Source: an uncultured Nitrospirota bacterium
GTDB lineage: Bacteria; Nitrospinota; Nitrospinia; CAJXCL01
NCBI GenBank assembly: GCA_913051775.1
Contig: CAJXCL010000001.1
Location: 21,936-85,935 of the forward strand
DNA length: 64,000 nt
Direction: 5' to 3'
Numbering within the stretch: position 1 is the stretch's first letter; each line of letters opens with the position of its first letter. The position numbers and the translations under genes were made by a program. Below the pieces are notes generated by a model. The model worked only from the letters and a program-made list of their open reading frames with translations, ran no database searches and had not been told where the DNA came from. Below are positions 3,342 through 58,623 of this stretch, piece by piece.

Positions 3342-3964
3342 CTTTTTATCTAAAACAACTAGAAGTGGGGATGATACAAAACTTTAACTACCTTATCGGC
3401 TGTTCTGAAACAAAAGAGTGTGGTGTGGTAGATGCTGCGTTTGAAGTGGATCGGATTTTAAGTATGGCAAAGAAAGACGGCATGAAAATTACAACAGCGC
3501 TTTTTACCCATACCCACTATGATCATATCGATGGGATAGGGGAGTTAACCAAAAGGGCTAACATTGGGAAAATATATGTCCACAAAAATGAAGCTAAGGC
3601 TTTATCGGAATTTAAAGAAAAAGTTACTGAGATTGATGATGGATCGCTCATCCCCATAGGAAATATATCCCTTAAAGTCCTCCATACTCCAGGCCATCTC
3701 CCTGGATGTGTTTGTTACCTTGGCGATAATTTTGTGGTTACCGGAGATACCCTTTTTACAGGTGCTATTGGTAGATGTGATTTTCCGGAAAGTAACCCGA
3801 AAGACATGTACAGAAGTCTTCAAAAACTAAAAGAACTGCCGGACGACACCAGAGTGTATCCCGGTCATGATTATGGAGCGTCAATCACCTCAACTATAGG
3901 TGAAGAAAAGAAGACCAATCCGTATCTAATGATCTCTTCCGAAGAGAATTTTTTGAGAATGTAA
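3338..3964 (+). CDS. MBL-fold metallo-hydrolase (hydroxyacylglutathione-hydrolase-like)
   Basis: 208 aa. 'HTHYDHIDG' (HxHxDH) motif. Start overlaps the upstream stop by 4 nt (ATGA), suggesting translational coupling. Confidence 0.7.
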   Translation: MTFYLKQLEVGMIQNFNYLIGCSETKECGVVDAAFEVDRILSMAKKDGMKITTALFTHTHYDHIDGIGELTKRANIGKIYVHKNEAKALSEFKEKVTEIDDGSLIPIGNISLKVLHTPGHLPGCVCYLGDNFVVTGDTLFTGAIGRCDFPESNPKDMYRSLQKLKELPDDTRVYPGHDYGASITSTIGEEKKTNPYLMISSEENFLRM

Positions 3965-3997
3965 AATCGAAAATCCAAAATCCAAAATCGTCAATCC
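3963..3997. repeat. 7-bp microsatellite (aaaatcg/aaaatcc) x5 between convergent gene ends
   Basis: Units read directly: aaaatcg aaaatcc aaaatcc aaaatcg tcaatcc. Sits in the 41-nt spacer between the MBL hydrolase and acs stops. Confidence 0.6.
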
Positions 3998-4005
3998 GCA
4001 ATTCC

Positions 4006-5943
4006 TTACTGCCTTCCCTCTACCAGAGATTCAACCACAGTCGGGTCTGCAAGTGTAGAGGTGTCTCCCATGTTTTCAATGTCTCCTTCGGCAATTTTTT
4101 TCAAAACTCGCCGCATGATTTTCCCTGAACGTGTTTTTGGCAACACCGGTGTAAACTGGATTTTGTCTGGTGTGACATGAGGGCCCAAAAGCTTGCGTGC
4201 CGTAGAACGAATATTTGCGACGATGCCGTCACTGGAATCCACACCCGTCATTAAAGTTACAAAGGCATAAATCCCCTGGCCTTTTATATCGTGCGGAAAG
4301 CCTACTACTGCGGCTTCCGCAACGCCTTTTGTCTGGCCTATGGCTCCCTCGACTTCAGCAGTGCCTATGCGGTGTCCTGAAACATTCAGCACATCATCCA
4401 CCCGTCCGGTAATCCAATAATAACCATCCTCATCTCTGGTAGCGCCGTCTCCCGTAAGATAATATCCGGGGAATTGATCGAAGTATATTTGTCGAAAGCG
4501 TTCATGATCTCCATAGACGGTTCGCATGATTCCCGGCCATGCCGCTTTGATAGCAAGATATCCTTTGCAAGGTCCCTCAAGTTCTTTACCCGATTCATCT
4601 AATATCACTGGCTGCACACCGAAAAAAGGAAGTGTTGCCGAGCCGGGTTTTGTAGAAATTGCGCCCGGTAAGGGAGTAATCAGTATTCCACCTGTCTCTG
4701 TTTGCCACCAGGTGTCTACTATCGGACACCGATCTTTACCTATTTTCCGGTGATACCATAACCACTCAGGTTCTTTAATGGGTTCTCCCACAGTTCCAAG
4801 CAGACGAAGTGATGATAAATCGTGTTTTTCAGGCCATTCATTCCCTTCTTTCATCAATGATCTAAGAGCTGTCGGGGCTGTGTAAAAGAGATTAATTTTA
4901 TGCTTTTCCACTATTTGCCAGAACCGCCCAAAATCAGGATAATTAGGTACTCCCTCAAACATTACTGTAATGGCACGATTGGCTAACGGACCGTAAACAA
5001 TATAAGAATGACCTGTTACCCAGCCGATGTCAGCAGTACACCAATAAATATCTCCTTCATGATAATCGAAAATCAGCTCGTGTGAATATGAAGTGTAGAC
5101 CAGGTACCCGCCGGTTGTGTGAAGCACTCCTTTAGGCTTGCCAGTTGAACCGGAAGTGTACAATATAAACAAAGGATCTTCCGCGTCCATTTCCTCAGGA
5201 GCACCTTGATCCCTTGCTTCTGACATTGCCTGATCCCAGTAAATATCTCTTCCTTCTTTCATTTTTACTTTTTCACTTGTTCTTCGGACAACGACAATCT
5301 TTTCAATTGATGGACATTCAGCGGCAGCAATATCTGCGTTGGTTTTCATAGGGATATTTGTTTTAGTCCCGCGGACGCCCGTATCTTGGGTGATCAGCAT
5401 CTTACATGATGAGTCGTTGATACGGTCTTTCAGGGAACCAGAGCTAAACGCTCCAAAAACTATAGAATGAACCGCTCCAATACGGGCGCAGGCGAGCATG
5501 GCAACCGGAAGTTCGGGAATCATCTGAAGATAGATACAAATGCGATCGCCTTTTTTTATACCATTATCCTTCATGGCATTTGCGAATTTTTGAACATCAG
5601 TAAGAAGCTCTGAATAAGTGAATGTCTTTGACTCCTTTGGATCATTCCCCTCCCATATCAGGGCAGTTTTATTGCCATGACCTGCCTCCACATGCCTGTC
5701 GAGGCAATTATAGCTGACATTTAGTTTTCCTCCTTCAAACCATTTGATATCTGCCTTCACAAAATCGTATTTAACCACAGTTTCCCATTTCCTGCTCCAG
5801 TCAAGCCTTTCAGCTACTTTTCCCCAAAACCCCGCGGGATTTTGAATAGATTCTTTGTAAAGTTCTTGATATTTTTCTAAAGAACTAATATGCGCATTTG
5901 CGGAAAAATCAGGATTCGGTGAAAATTTCTTAATATTGCTCAT
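4006..5943 (-). CDS. acs: Acetyl-CoA synthetase (AMP-forming)
   Basis: 645 aa. AMP-binding signature '[12 protein letters not shown]'. Overall Acs architecture with C-terminal '[11 protein letters not shown]'. Confidence 0.95.
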
Positions 5944-5960
5944 AGAAAAACTCCTTTAAT

Positions 5961-6080
5961 GTGAAAGTCTTTAGCTAGTGCAGCCTTCGCAGCTTGCTGC
6001 GGGGCTAGCGAGCGAACTTAAAATGAAATCATACTCTACACTGAAGATTTCCAGTAGCTTGCTACGGGGAGCTTCAATGT
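5961..6080. repeat. Family-A repeat, composite copy (partial short form fused to a long form; A2)
   Basis: 'gtgaaagtctttagctagtgcagccttcgcagcttgctgcgggg' is followed by 'ctagcgagcgaacttaaaatgaaatcatactctacactgaagatttccagtagcttgctacggggagcttcaatg'. It lies in the 860-bp divergent acs/msrP intergenic region. Confidence 0.7.
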
Positions 6081-6178
6081 TAAAAAGTGGATACAAAAGT
6101 TTTTTATACCAGTTCTGTCTTTCCTACGCAAGCAGGGATGACATCAAAAACTGTAGTTGCTGAAGATAAAGTTAATTT

Positions 6179-6232
6179 TGAAAGTGCTTAGCGAGCGCAT
6201 TTTTCACAGCTTTGCTGCTAGGAGCTTCAAAA
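6179..6232. repeat. Family-A repeat, short form (A3)
   Basis: 'gaaagtgcttagcgagcgcatttttcacagctttgctgctaggagcttcaaaag', about 100 nt from A2. Confidence 0.65.
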
Positions 6233-6804
6233 GAAGTTGAAATTGAATTGTAATGCAGGTTATGTTTTAATTAGGAAAAATTTTTGATATAAGGAAATAT
6301 TATGAAGCGTTTCAAACTGTTATTGCCCTTTCATTCTGGGAAAATTTTCATTTATATTTTGTGCCTGGAACTCTTTCCAGAAAAGTAAGGAAAAATTCTA
6401 TAAATGCATAAAGGTATACAATTCAGACTTTGAAAACAAACAGGGTGAGAAAGCTGTATTTCTGGTGCATCCGGATCAGCAGAAAGAATTTCTAACTAAA
6501 ATTATTGACGTGAACGATAAAATAATCTTTTACGAAAGCTCGGTTCTCAAAACCAGGTTTTTCCAAAGATGGTCATCCCATAAAGCAAAATGGAAATGGG
6601 GAGATAGATGATGGAATAGACAAAACCATTGTGACGATGCGTTACCAGCTGGTTATCTCACCGAGCAATAAACTGAAATTGCTCATAATCGAGCAAGAAT
6701 GGGTGCGTATGGAAAAAGACTGGTTTGTCAAACCCAACTAAAACGATTTTTTTAAATAGTCCTTTGTAAAGGAAATCTAAATTATTTTTGTAAGGAATAA
6801 ATAA

Positions 6805-7722
6805 ATGACAAAGGTTAAATCTTCTGAAATTACACCGGAAAGCTTATATCTTAACAGGCGAAAATTTATGGTTGGTGTTGGAGGAATAATATTAAGTACT
6901 GCAGGTTTCCCCGGTTGCGACAATTATAAGACAACATATGAACCATCAAAAGGCGGCGTTTTGCCGGATGATAAGCTTACGTCCTACAAAGATATAACTA
7001 CATATAACAACTTTTATGAATTTTCACTAGATAAAGAGGACGTAATTTTTGCGGCAAAAGACTTTAAAACATCTCCATGGAAATTAGAAATAGGAGGACT
7101 TACAGAGAAGTCTTTGAGTATTGACGTGGATGATTTGACTAAAATATACGATCAAGAAGAAAGAATATATCGTTTTCGATGCGTGGAAGGGTGGTCCATG
7201 GTGATCCCCTGGTTGGGACTTCCTCTCGCCAGACTTTTAAAAGAGGTTGAACCCCTGCCGGAAGCTAAATATGTTCAGTTCATGACGCTTCATAGTCCGA
7301 GCAGGATGCCAAATCAGAAATCAAGATCTTTTCCCTGGCCATACATTGAAGGACTTCGGATTGATGAAGCTATGCACGATCTTACATTCTTATCAACAGG
7401 GTTGTACGGCAAAAAACTAATGCCACAAAACGGAGCCCCTATTCGCCTCGTTGTTCCCTGGAAATACGGTTTTAAAAGCATAAAATCTATAGTCAGGATA
7501 CTCCTGGTTGAACACATGCCTTCGTCTCTATGGATGAAAGTTAACCCTCGTGAATATGGTTTTTATTCAAATGTAAACCCGACAGTGGATCATCCCCGCT
7601 GGTCGCAAGCGTCCGAGCGCAGGATCGGCGAATTTGGACGCCGCGAAACTCTACCGTTTAATGGATATGAAGAAGATGTGGCCGACCTTTACAAAGGAAT
7701 GGATTTAAAAAAGTATTTCTAA
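6805..7722 (+). CDS. msrP: Protein-methionine-sulfoxide reductase catalytic subunit MsrP (YedY, molybdopterin oxidoreductase)
   Basis: 305 aa. Twin-arginine signal 'NRRKFMVGVGG'. YedY-like conserved core. Followed by the membrane partner gene with a 1-nt overlap. Confidence 0.85.
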   Translation: MTKVKSSEITPESLYLNRRKFMVGVGGIILSTAGFPGCDNYKTTYEPSKGGVLPDDKLTSYKDITTYNNFYEFSLDKEDVIFAAKDFKTSPWKLEIGGLTEKSLSIDVDDLTKIYDQEERIYRFRCVEGWSMVIPWLGLPLARLLKEVEPLPEAKYVQFMTLHSPSRMPNQKSRSFPWPYIEGLRIDEAMHDLTFLSTGLYGKKLMPQNGAPIRLVVPWKYGFKSIKSIVRILLVEHMPSSLWMKVNPREYGFYSNVNPTVDHPRWSQASERRIGEFGRRETLPFNGYEEDVADLYKGMDLKKYF

Positions 7723-8303: not shown

Positions 8304-8650
8304 AAGTTTTTCTCGTAGAGACGAAAAGTCGTAGAGATGGAAAAATCCGAAACCCGAAGCACGAATTCATAAACAAATCCAAATCTCAAATTTTAAAATT
8401 TCTAAAACTTTATTTGTCATTGATTTTTTTGACATTTGAATTTATTTCGAGTTTTGTATTTCAAAATTCGTGTTTCTTTCATATTTGCGGCTTTACGAGA
8501 GATTTTTTTAGTTATCCCCTGCTACCTTGAGTAAATCTGTGAACCAAAATTTAACAAAATTTAAAAATCTTCTAAAACAAAAGAATCAAATGTAAAAATA
8601 TTTTATCCATACTATAATAAAAATATTTTCAAAATGAATCAGTAAAATCT

Positions 8651-9567: not shown

Positions 9568-10101
9568 TTAATATTCTATGCCTTTTTGTGCCTTGACACC
9601 GGATTTGAAGGGATGCTTTATTTCTTTCATTTCCGTTACGAGATCGGCAATCTCTATGATTTCAGGCGGGGCGTTTCTACCTGTTAATATGACATGCAGA
9701 TCTTGCGGTTTTTTTTTGAGAAAATTCATGACATCATGAACATCAAGATAATTATATCTCAGGGCGATATTAATTTCGTCCAATACAACTATTTTATACT
9801 TTCCCGATAAAATTTTTTCCTTACATAACTCCCAGGTGCGTTGTGCCACCATAGTATCACGTTCTTTATCTTTAGTATTCCATGTAAAACCTTCTCCCAT
9901 CGGTATCAGTTCGAAGTTATCGGAAAACTTTTTTGCGGCATCCAGTTCGCCATAATTCCAACTTCCCTTAATAAACTGGACCATGCAGACTTTATAATCA
10001 TATCCTAGGGCTCGAAAAGCAGTTCCTAACGCCGCGGTGGTTTTCCCTTTCCCGTCACCGGTATTGACTATGATTAGTCCTTTTTTATTTTTTTTATTCA
10101 T
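9568..10101 (-). CDS. cobO: Cob(I)yrinic acid a,c-diamide / cob(I)alamin adenosyltransferase (CobO/BtuR family)
   Basis: 177 aa. 'GLIIVNTGDGKGKTTAALG...VCMVQFIKG...GFTWNTKDKERD...VLDEI...HPFKSGVKAQKGIEY' aligns position-for-position with BtuR/CobA. Confidence 0.9.
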   Translation of the reverse strand: MNKKNKKGLIIVNTGDGKGKTTAALGTAFRALGYDYKVCMVQFIKGSWNYGELDAAKKFSDNFELIPMGEGFTWNTKDKERDTMVAQRTWELCKEKILSGKYKIVVLDEINIALRYNYLDVHDVMNFLKKKPQDLHVILTGRNAPPEIIEIADLVTEMKEIKHPFKSGVKAQKGIEY

Positions 10102-10521
10102 AATCGTACTATTTAATTTTCACAACAAATTTATCACAATTATTACAGACTTTTATACTATAATTTTTAGAGGTATAGAATTTATTAATCCGCGGAACAG
10201 AGAAGGGTCGCGAAATAATGAATATTGATTTATTTTTTTTCGTGCTTTTCGTGGTTGATTATTAAATTTGATTGCAGTTTTGTGGCGATATGCAAAGTCA
10301 AAGTGAACTGGTTCAGATATTATCAAGGTTGAAAAGAACCCCATACCCGGCTACCGAAGTATAAAAGAGATATGCGAATTAATAATGACAGATGTACGAG
10401 AGAAAGGACTGGACTGTTTAAGTGAAGAGTGGATAAGAGGAGATCTGTCTGAATTTAGAATCTTTGAATTGGCAGCTACTCTGAATCGCTTTCGAAGCCT
10501 AAAGGTAAAGCAAATAAGTTT

Positions 10522-10572
10522 GGAAGTGTTTAGCGAGCGCATTTCTAGCAGCTTGCTGCGGGGAGCTTCAAT
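10522..10572. repeat. Family-A repeat, short form (A4)
   Basis: 'gaagtgtttagcgagcgcatttctagcagcttgctgcggggagcttcaat'. Intergenic between cobO and the CDP-alcohol phosphatidyltransferase operon. Confidence 0.7.
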
Positions 10573-10617
10573 TTCAGGCAACCTGCTATCACCCAGATTG
10601 CCTTTTACACCAGTTCT

Positions 10618-11886
10618 TCAAGCTGTCTGAATTCTCGGTTTTCTCCAGAAAGGTGAGAGGATATAGATGAAAATTGGACCGCTCAAAAAGCCGATGGGAT
10701 TAATGAAAACTGCCGGGATGAGCCCGAGGGACACGCTGATGATTATTTCGGTTATCCGCATTGTCGGTAGAATTCGATTAAAATGCTGCCAGAAGATTTT
10801 GAATGAACACATCAGAACGGCTGCAATGACTTCGATAATAATACCAACTGCCGGTGGAACACAAAGGATAGTGGAAGATATCAGCCAGGCCCCGGCCGGA
10901 CTTGGGAGACCGCGAAAAAAGCCTGGTGGTGTGATATCTTTAGTTTTACTGTAATCATACAACCTGATGCAGATGGCTGTGAAATAAATAAGCCCGCCTA
11001 TCATGTTTGCTGCTGTCCACCCTGTCATGGCAGCTACCAGCACGGCTGGAGCCAGGCCGAAACTGACCAGGTCTGCTATGGTATCAAAATCTTTGCCGAA
11101 CTTACTGGTTACGCCAAGGCGTCTGGCCACTGAACCGTCTATCAGATCAAAGCCCATGGCGGCAAAATTTAACAGGACTCCGGTTTTCAACTGGCTCTGG
11201 CTTGCGTACAATATGGCCAATAGCCCGCAGATGAGGTTGCTTAAAGTTAAAAGCTGCGGGATTAGCAGACAGATAGAATGTTTCGCTTTGTCCGGTATAA
11301 CGCGGATAGCAACTGAGATACTCGCAAGCACCAGTGCTGTCCAGATTAGCAAGTTGCCAATGACGTTTAACCGAGGGACGTTGGTCAGAATCGCTATGCC
11401 GAAGAAAAGTTTTGATAGATTCTGAGACAGGGCCTTTTTTTTACCGAACTCGTTGGCGCCTTGTACCTGAGTGCCTCGCAGGAAGGTCGAGGCAATGTCG
11501 AGGGCAAAAAGGATAGCAAGAGCAGTATGGTTAATAGCCGACCAGAATAGGATCAAAGTACTGTAAGTGATCAGTTTGTCTACTGCCGGGTCAAGAACTT
11601 TTCCATGCTGGCTAACCTGGCCTGTTTCCCTGGCCAGAGCGCCATCCACAATGTCAAACATGATGACTATTGTTACCAGCAGCAGGGCAAGCAGACCGAT
11701 TAGCTGCCACCAGATACCGAGCAGTTCTCCCAGTTCGTGCATATAGACCCATAAAAACCAGCCCGGTGCAAAAAATAGAAGACGGGCAACGGTGATCTGG
11801 TTAGGAGAAATTCCTAAATCATACCCGATCCACCTGACAAATTTTCTAAACTGATTACGTGGCATTTGCACAAATAATTCTCTCAT
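10618..11886 (-). CDS. Tandem (duplicated) CDP-alcohol phosphatidyltransferase fusion protein
   Basis: 422 aa polytopic membrane protein carrying two complete D-G-x2-A-R-x8-G-x3-D-x3-D signatures: 'DIVDGALARETGQVSQHGKVLDPAVD' and 'DLIDGSVARRLGVTSKFGKDFDTIAD'. Confidence 0.7.
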   Translation of the reverse strand: MRELFVQMPRNQFRKFVRWIGYDLGISPNQITVARLLFFAPGWFLWVYMHELGELLGIWWQLIGLLALLLVTIVIMFDIVDGALARETGQVSQHGKVLDPAVDKLITYSTLILFWSAINHTALAILFALDIASTFLRGTQVQGANEFGKKKALSQNLSKLFFGIAILTNVPRLNVIGNLLIWTALVLASISVAIRVIPDKAKHSICLLIPQLLTLSNLICGLLAILYASQSQLKTGVLLNFAAMGFDLIDGSVARRLGVTSKFGKDFDTIADLVSFGLAPAVLVAAMTGWTAANMIGGLIYFTAICIRLYDYSKTKDITPPGFFRGLPSPAGAWLISSTILCVPPAVGIIIEVIAAVLMCSFKIFWQHFNRILPTMRITEIIISVSLGLIPAVFINPIGFLSGPIFIYILSPFWRKPRIQTA

Positions 11887-16033: not shown

Positions 16034-16409
16034 GCTTATCTTTTGCAGCAACCACCGAACAGGTTAGACCGCTCATAGTAGATGGACAAAATCCACTCGA
16101 CTATCAATCTAAATATCCCATTAGGCGGGTTTTACATTTAACCACCGATGGTCCGCCTCGAGGAGCCGTAAAAGAATTTTTTGATTGTGTTTATTCCAAT
16201 GAAGGCAAAGCAGTCATAAAAAAGCGATTTATGCCTTTACAATAATATACGAAGTTGTCGTACCGCAATGGCGGCACCCATAAACGATGGAAATTTTAGA
16301 TTATCAGTGTCGTAGATTTCCAATCAAGTCGAGAGTGGTAATTCTACCCTTATGTCATTTCCGCAAAAGCGGGAATCTATTTTGTTGATTATAGTAACAG
16401 TATTTTCTT

Positions 16410-19957: not shown

Positions 19958-20106
19958 GGAGAGGCTCGACAACCACAATTCGGCATGGAAAGCCGAATTG
20001 GACGGATTCCGAAGGAAAAACGCCCCAAGGGTGAGGGCAGGGATGGCTGAAATCAAGTGAAGCTTCCGCTCCGGAGAGCTAATAAAAAAATTTGTTCAAA
20101 AAAAAT
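19958..20106 (+). repeat. Family-B ~145-nt structured intergenic element (copy B1; candidate ncRNA or cis-regulatory RNA)
   Basis: 'caaccacaattcgg...aattgga.gg.ttccgaag.aaaa.cgcc.caaggg.tgagg.ca.ggatggc.ga.aatcaa...hairpin...ctaataaaaa..ttgt.caaaaaaaa' is shared with 28843-28987 (about 80% identity). The terminal hairpin shows a compensatory change. Confidence 0.6.
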
Positions 20107-20209
20107 TTATTTTACAAATTAATAGTATAAGAGGTGAAGCTTTTCTAAACCTATTTATATCAGTAGGTAGTTGACTTAACAATTTCATTTTGTTTAAACT
20201 AAACGCATC

Positions 20210-23564: not shown

Positions 23565-23596
23565 AGCATAAAGCGGCAAGTTTCCGTAACAGAATG

Positions 23597-23642
23597 GAGC
23601 TTCCGCTCCAGTGAACAAACAAAAAAACTTGTTCAAAAAAAA
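23597..23642 (+). repeat. Family-B partial copy (3' hairpin plus A-rich tail only; B3)
   Basis: 'ggagcttccgctccagtgaacaaacaaaaaaacttgttcaaaaaaaag' matches the 3' end of B1. Located 70 nt upstream of prpD. Confidence 0.55.
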
Positions 23643-23709
23643 GTTTTCACAGTGTAATAGCAAAGACGATCTTCCTTCTTTAATACATGATTTTGAGGTT
23701 TTTTTTATC

Positions 23710-28842: not shown

Positions 28843-28987
28843 CGAGGCCACCAACCACAATTCGGTAAGGAATGCAAAATTGGATGGTTTCCGAAGAAAA
28901 GCCGCCCAAGGGGTTGAGGCCATGGATGGCCGATAATCAAATGGGCTGCCGCCCAGTCTGCTAATAAAAAGTTGTGCTAAAAAAACA
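28843..28987 (+). repeat. Family-B ~145-nt structured intergenic element (copy B2), 40 nt upstream of tRNA-Gln
   Basis: Aligns with B1 throughout. The hairpin 'tgggctgccgcccag' replaces B1's 'gaagcttccgctcc' (A-T to G-C covariation). Confidence 0.6.
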
Positions 28988-29026
28988 CAATTATACAGAT
29001 TTACAGTACAGAGGTTATCAATTGAG

Positions 29027-29100
29027 TTGGGGGATGGTCTAATGGCAGGACGAGCGGCTCTGACCCGCTTAGTGAAGGTTCGAATCCTTCTCCCCCAGCC
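29027..29100 (+). tRNA. tRNA-Gln (anticodon CUG)
   Basis: 74-nt cloverleaf folded by hand. Acceptor TGGGGGA/TCCCCCA. D-stem GTCT/GGAC. Anticodon stem AGCGG/CCGCT with loop cTCTGac. T-arm GAAGG-TTCGAAT-CCTTC. Discriminator G, encoded CCA. U1-A72 as in bacterial tRNA-Gln. Confidence 0.9.
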
Positions 29101-32307: not shown

Positions 32308-33231
32308 TTAAATAATAAACCTCTTCGCTACTTTTTGACTTTCGTATTCATTGCAATTTTTGCATATTTGCGGAAAATCTTTATCCATATGTCTTTTTCG
32401 GAGCCTTCTCATAGCTAGTCCGTTCCAGATGGAATCCACTGTTTCATTCAGGACGTTCCCGATTTGGAGCTCTCCTTCATAATCCGCGCAGCAGGGAACA
32501 ACTTTTCCGTCCCACAAGACCACCACCTTTCCGTAATCTTTCCCAAAAAGTTCTGGACAGATATCTGTCCTTTGTAATGCAAACTTGTAAAATTGTGTTT
32601 TTTTAGCACAATTTTTTTTAGCAGATTGGACGGTAGCCCCTTTGGTAGTGGCCTCTTGGCTATGCTGTGAACGGATTAATTTAGGTTGAAAACGAACATG
32701 GTCTGCTATGGATTTCCACTTATCATAAAAGGAGTCCATATCTTTTTCTGTTTGTTCTTCAACAACCATTACAATCCCTATTTTAAGGGGGCTGTTTTTC
32801 TCGTTTCTACCTTTTATCAGATTCAAAATATTATTTTCGATTATTTGAAAATCAATACCCCGAATTTTTTGGTATGTGTCCGGGTTTCCATCCACAGAAA
32901 TTCTCAATACACTTAAAGGACTGTTAAGAATTCTGTGGATAGTGTTGTCATCGAGCAATGTTCCGTTGGTATTAAAAACCGTATAACGAATTCCTTTATT
33001 ATGAGCATATTTGATCATATTAAATAAATCTTTGTTCTGCGTTGGTTCACCCCAGTTATGAAGGCAGAGATGCTTCAGCGATTTTCCGCTACCGATTGTT
33101 TTTTGAAAAAGTTCAAAAGACATGAATCCTTTTTTTCTTTTCATTTCATTATTAGTCGGACATATGCGGCAATTCAAATTACATACATTCGTCGTCTCAA
33201 TAGTTAATGATGTGAGTTTATTGATTTTCAT
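32308..33231 (-). CDS. Radical SAM enzyme with C-terminal SPASM-like Cys cluster
   Basis: 307 aa. 'ETTNVCNLNCRIC' CxxxCxxC. C-terminal 'PCCADYEGELQIGNV...CKNCNEY'. Confidence 0.7.
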   Translation of the reverse strand: MKINKLTSLTIETTNVCNLNCRICPTNNEMKRKKGFMSFELFQKTIGSGKSLKHLCLHNWGEPTQNKDLFNMIKYAHNKGIRYTVFNTNGTLLDDNTIHRILNSPLSVLRISVDGNPDTYQKIRGIDFQIIENNILNLIKGRNEKNSPLKIGIVMVVEEQTEKDMDSFYDKWKSIADHVRFQPKLIRSQHSQEATTKGATVQSAKKNCAKKTQFYKFALQRTDICPELFGKDYGKVVVLWDGKVVPCCADYEGELQIGNVLNETVDSIWNGLAMRRLRKRHMDKDFPQICKNCNEYESQKVAKRFII

Positions 33232-36618: not shown

Positions 36619-36638
36619 GAAGAAACCGGGGAAATTTA

Positions 36639-36680
36639 TTGAAGCTCCCTGCAGCAAAGCTGCGAGGAATTTTCAGTAAA
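36639..36680 (-). repeat. Family-A repeat, short form, reverse orientation (A6)
   Basis: Reverse complement 'ctgaaaattcctcgcagctttgctgcagggagcttcaat' matches the A4/A5 3' half. Confidence 0.6.
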
Positions 36681-36734
36681 GAATATTGGGCAGAATAACA
36701 AGATTACTAATTAACAGTTTACATCTTTCAATTA

Positions 36735-56032: not shown

Positions 56033-56091
56033 TGTTTAAACGAAATCTCCATTTTCCTATTATTTCGAGCGGAGCGAGAAAATTTAGGTGA

Positions 56092-56175
56092 GTGAAAGTG
56101 TTTAGCGAGCGAATTTAAAAAAAATTATACTCTACACTGAAAATTCTCAGTAGCTTGCTACGGGAAGCTTCAATG
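56092..56175. repeat. Family-A repeat, long form (A5), inserted between murD and ftsW inside the dcw cluster
   Basis: 'gtgaaagtgtttagcgagcgaatttaaaaaaaattatactctacactgaaaattctcagtagcttgctacgggaagcttcaatg'. The track-predicted ftsW start (56155) lies inside it. Confidence 0.7.
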
Positions 56176-56196
56176 TGGCTAAAATTTAATAATAGG

Positions 56197-57357
56197 ATGG
56201 ATATGAGGACTTCAGAAAATCGATACGACCCTGTAATTTTTATATCAGTTATTCTTTTAATCGGTTTAGGGCTAATAATGGTTTACAGTTCCAGCGCCGC
56301 GATTGCATACCAAAAATTTAATGATCCTTACTACTTCTTAAAACGACAGATTTTCCAGGTCATTATCGGCGGGGTTTTAATGGTTTTTTTTATGTGCTTA
56401 GACTATCATACTATTCAAAAGTTTACTTACCCAGCTCTCATTATAACCATGTTTCTTCTTATTCTGGTTTTGTTCCCGCAGTTTGGGAAAAAAGTAGGCG
56501 GGGCTCAGCGCTGGTTACATATAGGAAGCTTCTCTTTTCAACCGTCAGAACTGGCTAAATTTACCTTAATCCTTTATGTGGTTCATTCTCTTGTTAAAAA
56601 ACAGGAGAGGATAGAAGATTTCTTTTACGGGTATTTACCTAACCTGCTTGTCCTAGGCTTTTTCTCTATTTTATTTCTTTTTCAACCTGACCTGGGGACA
56701 ACCGTGGTTTTAATTGCAGTAGTTTTTATTCTTTTTTTTATTGCCGGCATAAAATTCAATTATCTCTTTTATTCAGTTGTGATGCTTTTGCCGGCCATCT
56801 GCTGGGTTATTTTAAGTTCAGAATATCAGAAGAACAGAATCATTTCATTTTTAGATCCTGAAAAGGACCCCCTTGGAAAAGGGTATCAGATTATTCAATC
56901 TTTTATGGCCTTTAGCCGCGGGAATGCATTCGGTATTGGGCTGGGTGAAGGCAGGCAAAAGTTGTTCTTTCTTCCTGAACCTCATACTGACTTTATTTTT
57001 TCCATCATTGGTGAGGAGTTGGGATTTGCCGGAACAGTTATTGTTGTCATGCTGTTTTTAGCCATTATTTGGCGGGGAATCCAGACTGCGATAAAATCTT
57101 CGGATCTATATGGAAAATTTTTGTCCTTGGGATTAACTTCTCTGATTGGTGTTCAGGCCATGGTAAACCTGGCTGTGGCAGTGGGGCTTCTCCCTACTAA
57201 AGGACTAACTTTGCCATTTGTCAGTATGGGAGGCTCCTCCCTGGTGGTTTCGATGATCTGCGCTGGAGTTTTATTGAATATATCTAAAAAGATAGGGGTC
57301 AGAAATCAGTCCTCAGTAGCGAGGGTGAGAAGAGTTGTACAGACACAAAGAGCGTAA
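56197..57357 (+). CDS. ftsW: Peptidoglycan glycosyltransferase / lipid II flippase FtsW (SEDS family)
   Basis: SEDS 10-TM protein between murD and murG. Start moved to the ATG at 56197 (MDMRTSENRY...) to exclude the repeat. Confidence 0.85.
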   Translation: MDMRTSENRYDPVIFISVILLIGLGLIMVYSSSAAIAYQKFNDPYYFLKRQIFQVIIGGVLMVFFMCLDYHTIQKFTYPALIITMFLLILVLFPQFGKKVGGAQRWLHIGSFSFQPSELAKFTLILYVVHSLVKKQERIEDFFYGYLPNLLVLGFFSILFLFQPDLGTTVVLIAVVFILFFIAGIKFNYLFYSVVMLLPAICWVILSSEYQKNRIISFLDPEKDPLGKGYQIIQSFMAFSRGNAFGIGLGEGRQKLFFLPEPHTDFIFSIIGEELGFAGTVIVVMLFLAIIWRGIQTAIKSSDLYGKFLSLGLTSLIGVQAMVNLAVAVGLLPTKGLTLPFVSMGGSSLVVSMICAGVLLNISKKIGVRNQSSVARVRRVVQTQRA

Positions 57358-58496: not shown

Positions 58497-58623
58497 CATG
58501 TTATGTCTCTGTACTCAAATTTAAAAAATTGTGTTTTTTTGGCACAATTTATGTTAGTAGACCGGGCGGCAGCTCATTTGGTTGCGCTTCCCTGGCTGTT
58601 CTGTGACAGCAATTATTTGTCAT

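Follow-up and report, generated by a model that had tools for sequence, protein, structure and literature searches.

We analyzed a family of dispersed repeats, family A, in a 64,000-nucleotide stretch of DNA from an uncultured Nitrospirota bacterium (GTDB lineage Nitrospinota; Nitrospinia; CAJXCL01; contig CAJXCL010000001.1, positions 21,936 to 85,935; hereafter the window), and found them to be, probably, gene-less members of the IS200/IS605-type lineage of insertion sequences (ISs), resembling miniature inverted-repeat transposable elements (MITEs) or palindrome-associated transposable elements (PATEs). Two of the copies lie in the 861-bp gap between the divergent genes acs and msrP, at 5962-6078 and 6179-6230, where the initial annotation of the window had placed them, and four more lie elsewhere in the window. 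The gap is largely genomic debris, and the idea that it is a regulatory device is not supported.

The full form of family A begins with the motif TGAA, followed by a spacer ending in AGCGAGCGCATT, hairpin 1 with the sequence CCCCG(C/T)AGCTTGCT(G/A)CGGGG, and TTAGCGAGCGAA; its right part consists of a lineage-specific core of ~35 nt ending in GAAGATT, hairpin 2, and the tail AGCT-TCAA-T. In the subfamily ending in TCAA, the left motif stands 18 to 20 nt, mostly 19 nt, from the foot of hairpin 1, and the right motif ends 8 nt past the foot of hairpin 2. The AGCGAGCG box occurs twice in the full form, and the two hairpins are in direct orientation in 46 full-length copies. The initial annotation had read 5962-6078 as a tandem of 1.5 copies, with a partial short form fused to a complete long one. 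This reading did not hold: because the sequence matches an independent full-length profile from end to end, and the same architecture recurs in other phyla, it is one canonical element. The two-hairpin form is the common full-length form and is found in Nitrospirota, Desulfobacterota, and Nitrospinota.

A scan for the 3′ module in one genome per species found it at at least 120 loci, which belonged to Nitrospira, "Candidatus Manganitrophus," Desulfobacterales, Syntrophales, Nitrospinota, and a few other labels of metagenome-assembled genomes (MAGs). Binning errors could account for the minor MAG labels, but not for the complete chromosomes CP114561 and CP070769. More than half of the matches in a 16-mer scan of metagenome contigs were due to chance in GC-rich DNA, and the true elements came to ~45 distinct marine low-GC copies. 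BLAST searches against plasmids and phages matched three "Ca. Manganitrophus" plasmids and no phage, and a scan of viral contigs gave a single chance match, within a coding sequence. In the library searched, the family sequences were matched just by two unrelated papers, with one 12-mer each. The family thus appears to be undescribed so far and unusually widespread, though its kind (PATE- or MITE-like) is known. The initial annotation had proposed that the repeats are dispersed, share a conserved hairpin, and show compensatory changes, and the six window copies and those in other phyla agree with it; copies elsewhere have kept the hairpin, and the family reaches well beyond the window.

The elements have sharp ends. 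In a profile of 132 left and 151 right ends, the information content was at most 0.06 bits right outside (T)TGAA and TCA[A/T]T, and no duplicated flank was present in this profile. The last base of the guide, i.e., the four bases just 5′ of a hairpin foot, varied with the right motif: 63 copies combine T with TCAA, 39 combine A with TCAT, and ~14 lie off the diagonal. The pairings of guide and site were CATT-TGAA, GATT-TCAA, GATA-TCAT, and AATA-TTAT or AATA-TCAT; the last two belong to the TCAT subfamily, in which the left guide AATA faces the left motif TTAT or TCAT. One IS, at locus L265, has GATT/TGAA at its left end and GATA/TCAT at its right end. The stem also covaried at the positions left free by the search pattern: pair 3 was C:G in 56 copies, T:A in 26, and a mismatch or wobble in 24, and pair 1 was C:G in 81, T:A in 8, and T:G in 14. 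The compensatory hairpin variants described in the initial annotation could be read directly in the window copies, with a GTAGC/GCTAC stem at 6054-6065 and ~56150 and a GCAGC/GCTGC stem at 5989-6000, ~10548, and ~36660.

A link to a Y1 transposase was found in Nitrospira. Locus L265 holds a complete 548-bp IS200-type element in a 5.7-kb contig, with a tnpA gene that carries one frameshift. Its left end reads TGAA|CTTGTGATT-CCCCGTAGCTT(C)TTGCTACGGGG and is followed by tnpA, after which the right end consists of TTCCGTGATA, hairpin 2 (CCCCGCAGCTTGCTGCGGGG, preceded by the guide GATA), and AGCT-TCAT|T. Locus L262 is an internally deleted copy of the IS that has kept both ends, and its N-terminal half, HYHIVVPVKYRK...NHIHL, matches positions 2-63 of Y1_Tnp (PF01797) with an E value of 9e-11. 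In addition, three contigs of one Nitrospira MAG share an identical sequence from their start, ~100 nt ahead of the right-end module; it encodes ...ERANWQTVERYVQRQGQPHDDLRQLRMF* with the stop codon 10 nt ahead of hairpin 2. Database relatives of the ERANWQTVERYVQRQGQPHDDLRQLRMF peptide carry PF01797, and P0157 aligned with Y1_Tnp positions 69-121 (E value, 4.6e-10); for the homology search, the 32-aa tnpA peptide was extended to 40 aa with a neutral pad. Fragments of tnpA, located by reading upstream of right ends at contig ends and by tblastn, abut family ends at contig breaks at five loci (L030, L052, L115, L048, and L089), the last two of which join left ends to the tnpA N terminus in the tblastn search. 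[quoted passage not shown] Since the same hairpins and tail flank tnpA in L265, the hairpins and tail of family A are those of a genuine Y1-transposase IS.

Other searches for a transposase gave no further candidates. A regular expression for the HUH and Y motifs found no match among the six-frame open reading frames (ORFs) of 1.8 Mb of loci, since contig ends cut off the tnpA fragments or frameshifts interrupt them. Clustering of the ORFs around 120 loci revealed no recurrent transposase, but common domain families alone, at varying distances. Pairs of left and right ends 0.25 to 4 kb apart, which would be a sign of autonomous copies, included none that was convincing.

The arrangement is close to that of IS608. 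In that IS, cleavage takes place on the left at TTAC, outside the element and at 19 nt on the 5′ side of the hairpin, and on the right at TCAA, at 10 nt on the 3′ side of the hairpin; a 4-nt guide just 5′ of each hairpin foot recognizes the cleavage site (PMC3201880). Family A shares with IS608 and the IS200/IS605 group subterminal hairpins on one strand at both ends and lacks long terminal inverted repeats; its left tetranucleotide is likewise 19 nt from the hairpin foot, its right end also closes in TCAA (8 nt past the hairpin, against 10 nt), its 4-nt guide covaries with the cleavage motif, target duplication is absent, and a related autonomous 548-bp IS, of the TCAT subfamily, encodes a PF01797 transposase. 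It differs from IS608 in that the window elements are gene-less, the target is TGAA and not TTAC, the guide is Watson-Crick paired at positions 3 and 4 alone, an internal duplicated TTAGCGAGCG box is present, no tnpB or omega-RNA is associated with it, and a cognate transposase of the TCAA subfamily or the window lineage was not found in the 1.8 Mb of loci searched.

By analogy with IS608, we infer the transposition chemistry, as well as the kind of transposase that served the window lineage. A Y1 HUH transposase (TnpA) would bind both subterminal hairpins on one DNA strand, and each cleavage site would be chosen by pairing with the guide, the left site being the TGAA outside the element, upstream of hairpin 1, and the right site the TCAA past hairpin 2. 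The element would be excised as a single-stranded circle and reinserted 3′ of another TGAA with no target duplication. Under this mechanism, the compensatory changes would be the trace of earlier selection that acted on a DNA hairpin as the substrate of a transposase and not on an RNA switch. The top strand of the element was on the locally G-rich strand in 92 copies and on the other in 60 (p = 0.012), the direction expected for targeting of the lagging-strand template, with local skew being a weak proxy for replication direction; in the window, which has five plus-strand copies and one minus-strand copy, the GC skew was positive in seven of eight bins. The murD/ftsW junction has the character of an insertion site, as the two genes overlap in the relatives L138 and L140 and are parted in the window by a 168-bp insert with an element.

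Several observations weigh against this assignment to the IS200/IS605 lineage. Neither the window nor the marine Nitrospinota loci yielded a Y1 transposase, and none was found beside any TCAA-subfamily copy in the 1.8 Mb; the autonomous IS is a member of the sister subfamily, TCAT, with a 9-nt left spacer and without the AGCGAGCG box. The guide CATT pairs with TGAA at two of its four positions, the covariation counts are carried largely by a few subfamilies and so stand for few independent events, and the bias between strands is weak. A precise empty site was not found, so that the cleavage points and the missing target duplication are read from flank statistics alone; the copy near acs is fixed in the sister lineage (L128). 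Either the element really ends in the T that follows TCAA in 83% of the copies, or this T reflects a target preference. Finally, single window copies did not fold better than shuffled sequence (z, -1.8 to +0.7), and the claim of a hairpin in the window thus rests on covariation between copies, not on stability.

Both the short and the long form described in the initial annotation exist. Three forms coexist in each lineage and share its own core, i.e., the full form of ~119 nt, a single-hairpin form of 52 nt, which is the commonest form of the family, and a form of ~82 nt without hairpin 1. Judged from their sequences, the shorter two look like deletion derivatives of the full form. The short form (X-H-tail) would have arisen from the full X-H1-X'-core-H2-tail by deletion between the two hairpins, and the long form (X'-core-H2-tail) by deletion between the two TTAGCGAGCG boxes. 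In several members (L024, L038, L047, L084, L097, L212, L143, L151, and L229), other small palindromic elements such as GCGGAGATCCCGCC..GGGG and CCCCCCTTGTTAGGGGGG are nested in the hairpin-1 loop or in the core, which suggests that insertion of one element into another is common.

PATEs and PATE-like minimal derivatives of IS200/IS605 elements are known, for example, from Haloquadratum and Geobacillus stearothermophilus (PMC3119063, PMC10055086). Like them, family-A elements are short and protein-less, consist just of hairpin-bearing left and right ends, outnumber the autonomous copies, and presumably depend on TnpA acting in trans. Their sequences differ from those of PATEs, and family A spans several phyla with near-identical hairpins, shows no sign of an embedded omega-RNA, and includes a 52-nt single-hairpin form that is smaller than the PATEs of these two reports. 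It is conceivable, though doubtful, that the 52-nt form is itself a mobile unit in which one hairpin and its guide CATT serve both the TGAA 19 nt upstream and the TCAA 8 nt downstream. Its abundance at many unrelated sites in each lineage would fit such mobility but is also explained by repeated deletion in situ. If it does move, it would be the smallest transposable unit of the IS200/IS605 type and a natural intermediate between IS ends and repetitive extragenic palindromic (REP) sequences, and the near-identical hairpin in Nitrospinota, Nitrospirota, and Desulfobacterota would reflect a single clade of Y1 enzymes that was broadly transferred or domesticated.

The commonest form of the family, a single hairpin behind a conserved tetranucleotide, is also what would be expected of REP-like elements served by a domesticated, single-copy REP-associated tyrosine transposase (RAYT; TnpA-REP) and not derived from an IS. 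The 52-nt form would then be the functional unit, a tetranucleotide and a palindrome cut on both sides, and the host would keep the hairpins for a role in genome structuring or in mRNA. Family A does resemble REPs, bacterial interspersed mosaic elements (BIMEs), and REP doublets forming hairpins (REPINs) in being abundant, intergenic, GC-rich, and connected with a Y1 HUH enzyme, RAYTs being members of the same PF01797 superfamily (PMC3479197, PMC2817692); its short form is REP-sized, its density is high (six copies in 64 kb), and the ~170 copies without an adjoining transposase would fit one distant RAYT per genome. However, the tetranucleotide is CATT, GATT, GATA, or AATA and not the GTAG/CGTC head that defines the REP superfamilies (PMC3733652), with GTAG present just inside some stems. 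The left and right modules of a copy differ, which makes it asymmetric, and paired hairpins are direct, not inverted as in REPINs and BIMEs. Moreover, the same ends flank a multicopy, assembly-breaking IS that contains tnpA, which is the arrangement of IS200 and not that of a single REP-flanked RAYT gene, and gene 3′ ends are not enriched for copies. The loci searched contained no RAYT gene of that arrangement. We consider the RAYT explanation unlikely.

The compensatory changes in the stem would also be expected of a cis-acting structured RNA, such as a leader, an attenuator, an mRNA-stabilizing hairpin, or a small RNA, tuning acs and/or msrPQ. Because the element at 5962 starts 18 nt ahead of the acs start codon, the 5′ leader of that gene either reads through the complement of the element or has its promoter or start inside it, and the copy is kept in the sister lineage; the element is thus in or beside the acs leader. 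Against a conserved RNA, Rfam at its gathering thresholds returned a tRNA alone for the window and nothing credible for 5900-6850 even at E values up to 10, the copy upstream of acs is antisense to that gene, and the window hairpins are eroded and fold like shuffled sequence. The 99 intergenic copies showed no orientation preference (27 same-sense and 30 antisense) and occupied every intergenic context, more often between divergent genes (30) than between convergent ones (12); they had no preference for gene 3′ ends, and their neighbor genes were functionally unrelated from copy to copy. An RNA role would also explain neither the sharpness of the ends nor the conserved motif at the flank nor the link to a transposase. 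This explanation is very improbable, and the regulatory role that the initial annotation had suggested for the hairpin finds no support; the hairpin also matches the transposase-binding ends of an IS200-type element.

There is next to no likelihood that family A is a MITE of the classical cut-and-paste kind, bounded by TTGAA...TTCAA as terminal inverted repeats and mobilized by a DDE transposase: the two motifs do form a 5-bp inverted repeat in the TCAA subfamily, but 5 bp is too short, the first T of TTGAA is present in ~53% of the copies, the flank statistics lack a target-site duplication, the ends of the TCAT subfamily are not inverted (TTAT|TC... and ...TCAT) although the hairpins are shared, and the element is strongly asymmetric. 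[quoted passage not shown]

The six window copies (Table 1) were placed by a profile hidden Markov model (HMM) trained solely on copies from other marine contigs. A repeat search of the window grouped 5962-6004 with 6179-6221 as family D3 and assigned 6018-6080 to family D1, and the 3′ module AGCTT(T)GCTRYNRGRAGCTTCA occurred 5 times, against an expectation of 0.00 from shuffled sequences. The copies have decayed: the left guide of the full-length element is CAGC instead of the consensus CATT, its hairpin 2 has an internal mismatch, the hairpin of the 6179 copy retains just about five good pairs, and hairpin 2 of the 1355 copy is largely destroyed. The copy nearest acs has an orthologue in the sister lineage L128, a variant in the same place with one hairpin and an enlarged loop, and is therefore older than the split from that lineage. 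The window copies are most likely old, degraded, fixed relics that no longer move.

Table 1. Positions of family-A copies, their parts, and other features of the window
Feature	Position	Strand	Details
Full-length nonautonomous element	5962-6078	+	HMM positions 1-118; E value, 1e-31
Left motif TGAA of the full-length element	5962-5965		
Spacer, 19 nt	5966-5984		
Hairpin 1	5985-6004		
CTAGCGAGCGAAC	6005-6017		
Lineage-specific core	6018-6045		
Right guide GATT	6046-6049		
Hairpin 2	6050-6069		
Tail AGCT	6070-6073		
Right motif TCAA	6074-6077		
Final T	6078		
Short single-hairpin form	6179-6230	+	HMM E value, 1e-13
Left motif TGAA of the short form	6179-6182		
Spacer, 19 nt, ending in CATT	6183-6201		
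Degraded hairpin	6202-6222		
Tail AGCT	6223-6226		
Right motif TCAA	6227-6230		
Short-form copy (TGGA...TCAAT)	10521-10572 (HMM 10522-10572)	+	Between cobA-like gene (9568-10101) and cytidine diphosphate (CDP)-alcohol phosphatidyltransferase gene (10618-11886)
Long form without hairpin 1	56093-56174 (HMM 56100-56174)	+	In 168-bp murD/ftsW insert
Degenerate long form without hairpin 1 (TAAA...CTTCAA)	1355-1435 (HMM 1362-1435)	+	E value, 7.5e-13
Right-end fragment: 3′ part of core, hairpin 2, AGCTTCAAT	36638-36686	-	Sole minus-strand copy; repeats I4, I7
acs	4006-5943	-	Pfam AMP-binding, ACAS_N
Unique spacer between the two family-A elements	6081-6178	.	Orthologous to sequence of sister lineage L128
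Pseudogene of a conserved 158-aa hypothetical protein	6302-6762	+	Three joined frames; intact homologues
msrP	6805-7722	+	Pfam Oxidored_molyb; followed by msrQ

Individual copies and their surroundings were compared with related contigs. The 10521 copy lies at or in the remnant of a deleted ATP-binding cassette (ABC) ATPase gene (window 10385-10630; L128:7177-8855), a 570-aa gene of which just the C-terminal ~81 codons (MRB1590_C) survive in the window lineage. In strain L131, a recombination breakpoint at 10519 falls exactly on the left edge of this element; a divergence of L131 specific to the element was considered and rejected, since it runs on from the breakpoint into the next gene. Compared with L135, a closely related strain, the window has five substitutions (6198, 6202, 6203, 6215, and 6219; L135:3394-3415), all inside the 6179-6230 element, and one further difference in the surrounding ~770 bp. 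In L135, the stem is better and the element nearer the family consensus, a pattern that looks like ectopic gene conversion or the replacement of the element by another copy at the same TGAA site. The murD and ftsW genes overlap by 4 nt in L138 and L140 (71 to 75% identity) and are separated in the window by the insert with the family-A copy (56033-56200). The relative L136, with 86% identity, has at 3860-3988 an insert of 129 bp that belongs to another repeat (GGGTTGCACCCCCC...GGGGGGTGCAA). The junction has been struck independently by different small elements.

The acs–msrP gap owes its length to ~170 bp of degraded transposon relics, a dead gene of ~460 bp, and some unique spacer. The initial annotation had described it as an unusually long divergent control region, and this description does not stand, since the ~460-bp part is a decayed gene whose intact orthologue occupies the same place in the sister lineage and the ~170-bp part is transposon debris. 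The window derives from the population genome of a marine Nitrospinota, and its MsrP, Acs, and ClpA are identical to NCBI proteins that bear the label Nitrospinota bacterium. The locus recurs in the Tara and Joint Genome Institute (JGI) ocean metagenomes, and the gap is 100% identical to that in five other metagenome contigs (six assemblies, from different oceans). When the gap was scanned for promoters and terminators, the counts were no better than those of shuffled sequence, and no promoter could be called; the present effect of the element on acs, if any, is incidental. An imperfect hairpin of a repeat type other than family A (TGTCTTTCCT..AGGGATGACA) lies in the spacer that separates the two elements, at ~6112-6147. 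This second hairpin repeat type, TTCCYRCGNAAGCRGGRA, is found at 6112-6147 and 16358-16375 and is related to a widespread GTCATTCCCGCG..CGGGAATGAC motif. At the place of the 6179 copy, the sister lineage (L128:2850-3350) has ~420 bp more of GC-rich hairpin repeats of the GTCATTCTGAGC.AAGCGAAGAATCTC type.

The initial annotation had found no convincing ORF in the remaining ~550 bp of the gap, which is correct for intact ORFs and misses a recognizable pseudogene. Two joins between three reading frames reconstruct 146 aa of a 158-aa protein family with an N-terminal hydrophobic segment, and the intact 158-aa homologues P0001-P0004 are 64 to 69% identical over 100% of this reconstruction. Three lesions separate it from an intact gene: a frameshift at ~6365-6385, after ...YILCL; a +1 frameshift by a T run at ~6565-6575 (KT-F..KDGHP); and a Leu codon changed to TAA at 6739-6741, six codons ahead of the ancestral stop at 6760-6762, which is 42 bp from msrP. 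An intact orthologue sits between acs and msrP in the sister-lineage contigs L128-L130. The premature TAA is present in the window strain and absent from L131, L134, and L135. In L126 and L127, a homologue of the pseudogene adjoins an Avd-like gene (23S_rRNA_IVP).

Other small repeats occur in the window. The spacer between msrQ and the lactamase gene (8304-8650) measures 347 bp in the window and 81 bp in L128; the extra ~270 bp are AT-rich, contain CGAAACCCGAAGCACGAATTC-like motifs resembling flanks elsewhere, e.g., in L109, and may belong to another small repeat family. Further dispersed repeats (D2, D4, D6, D7, I1, and I3), unrelated to family A, are found at 19970-20108, 23595-23645, 28852-29014, 32569-32682, and 58516-58618, some of them adjoining the tRNA gene at 29028-29098.

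The debris reading of the acs–msrP gap removes a false lead, as its length does not point to an elaborate control region, and it agrees with further signs of gene loss nearby. For annotation, the family is relevant because its repeats break assemblies and yield spurious ORFs. One hairpin and tail sequence is common to IS200-type elements and their gene-less derivatives in at least three bacterial phyla, and its copies provide a natural covariation data set for the rule of pairing between guide and cleavage site that was established biochemically for IS608. The family thereby bears on how IS200 ends, PATEs, and REPs are related to one another.

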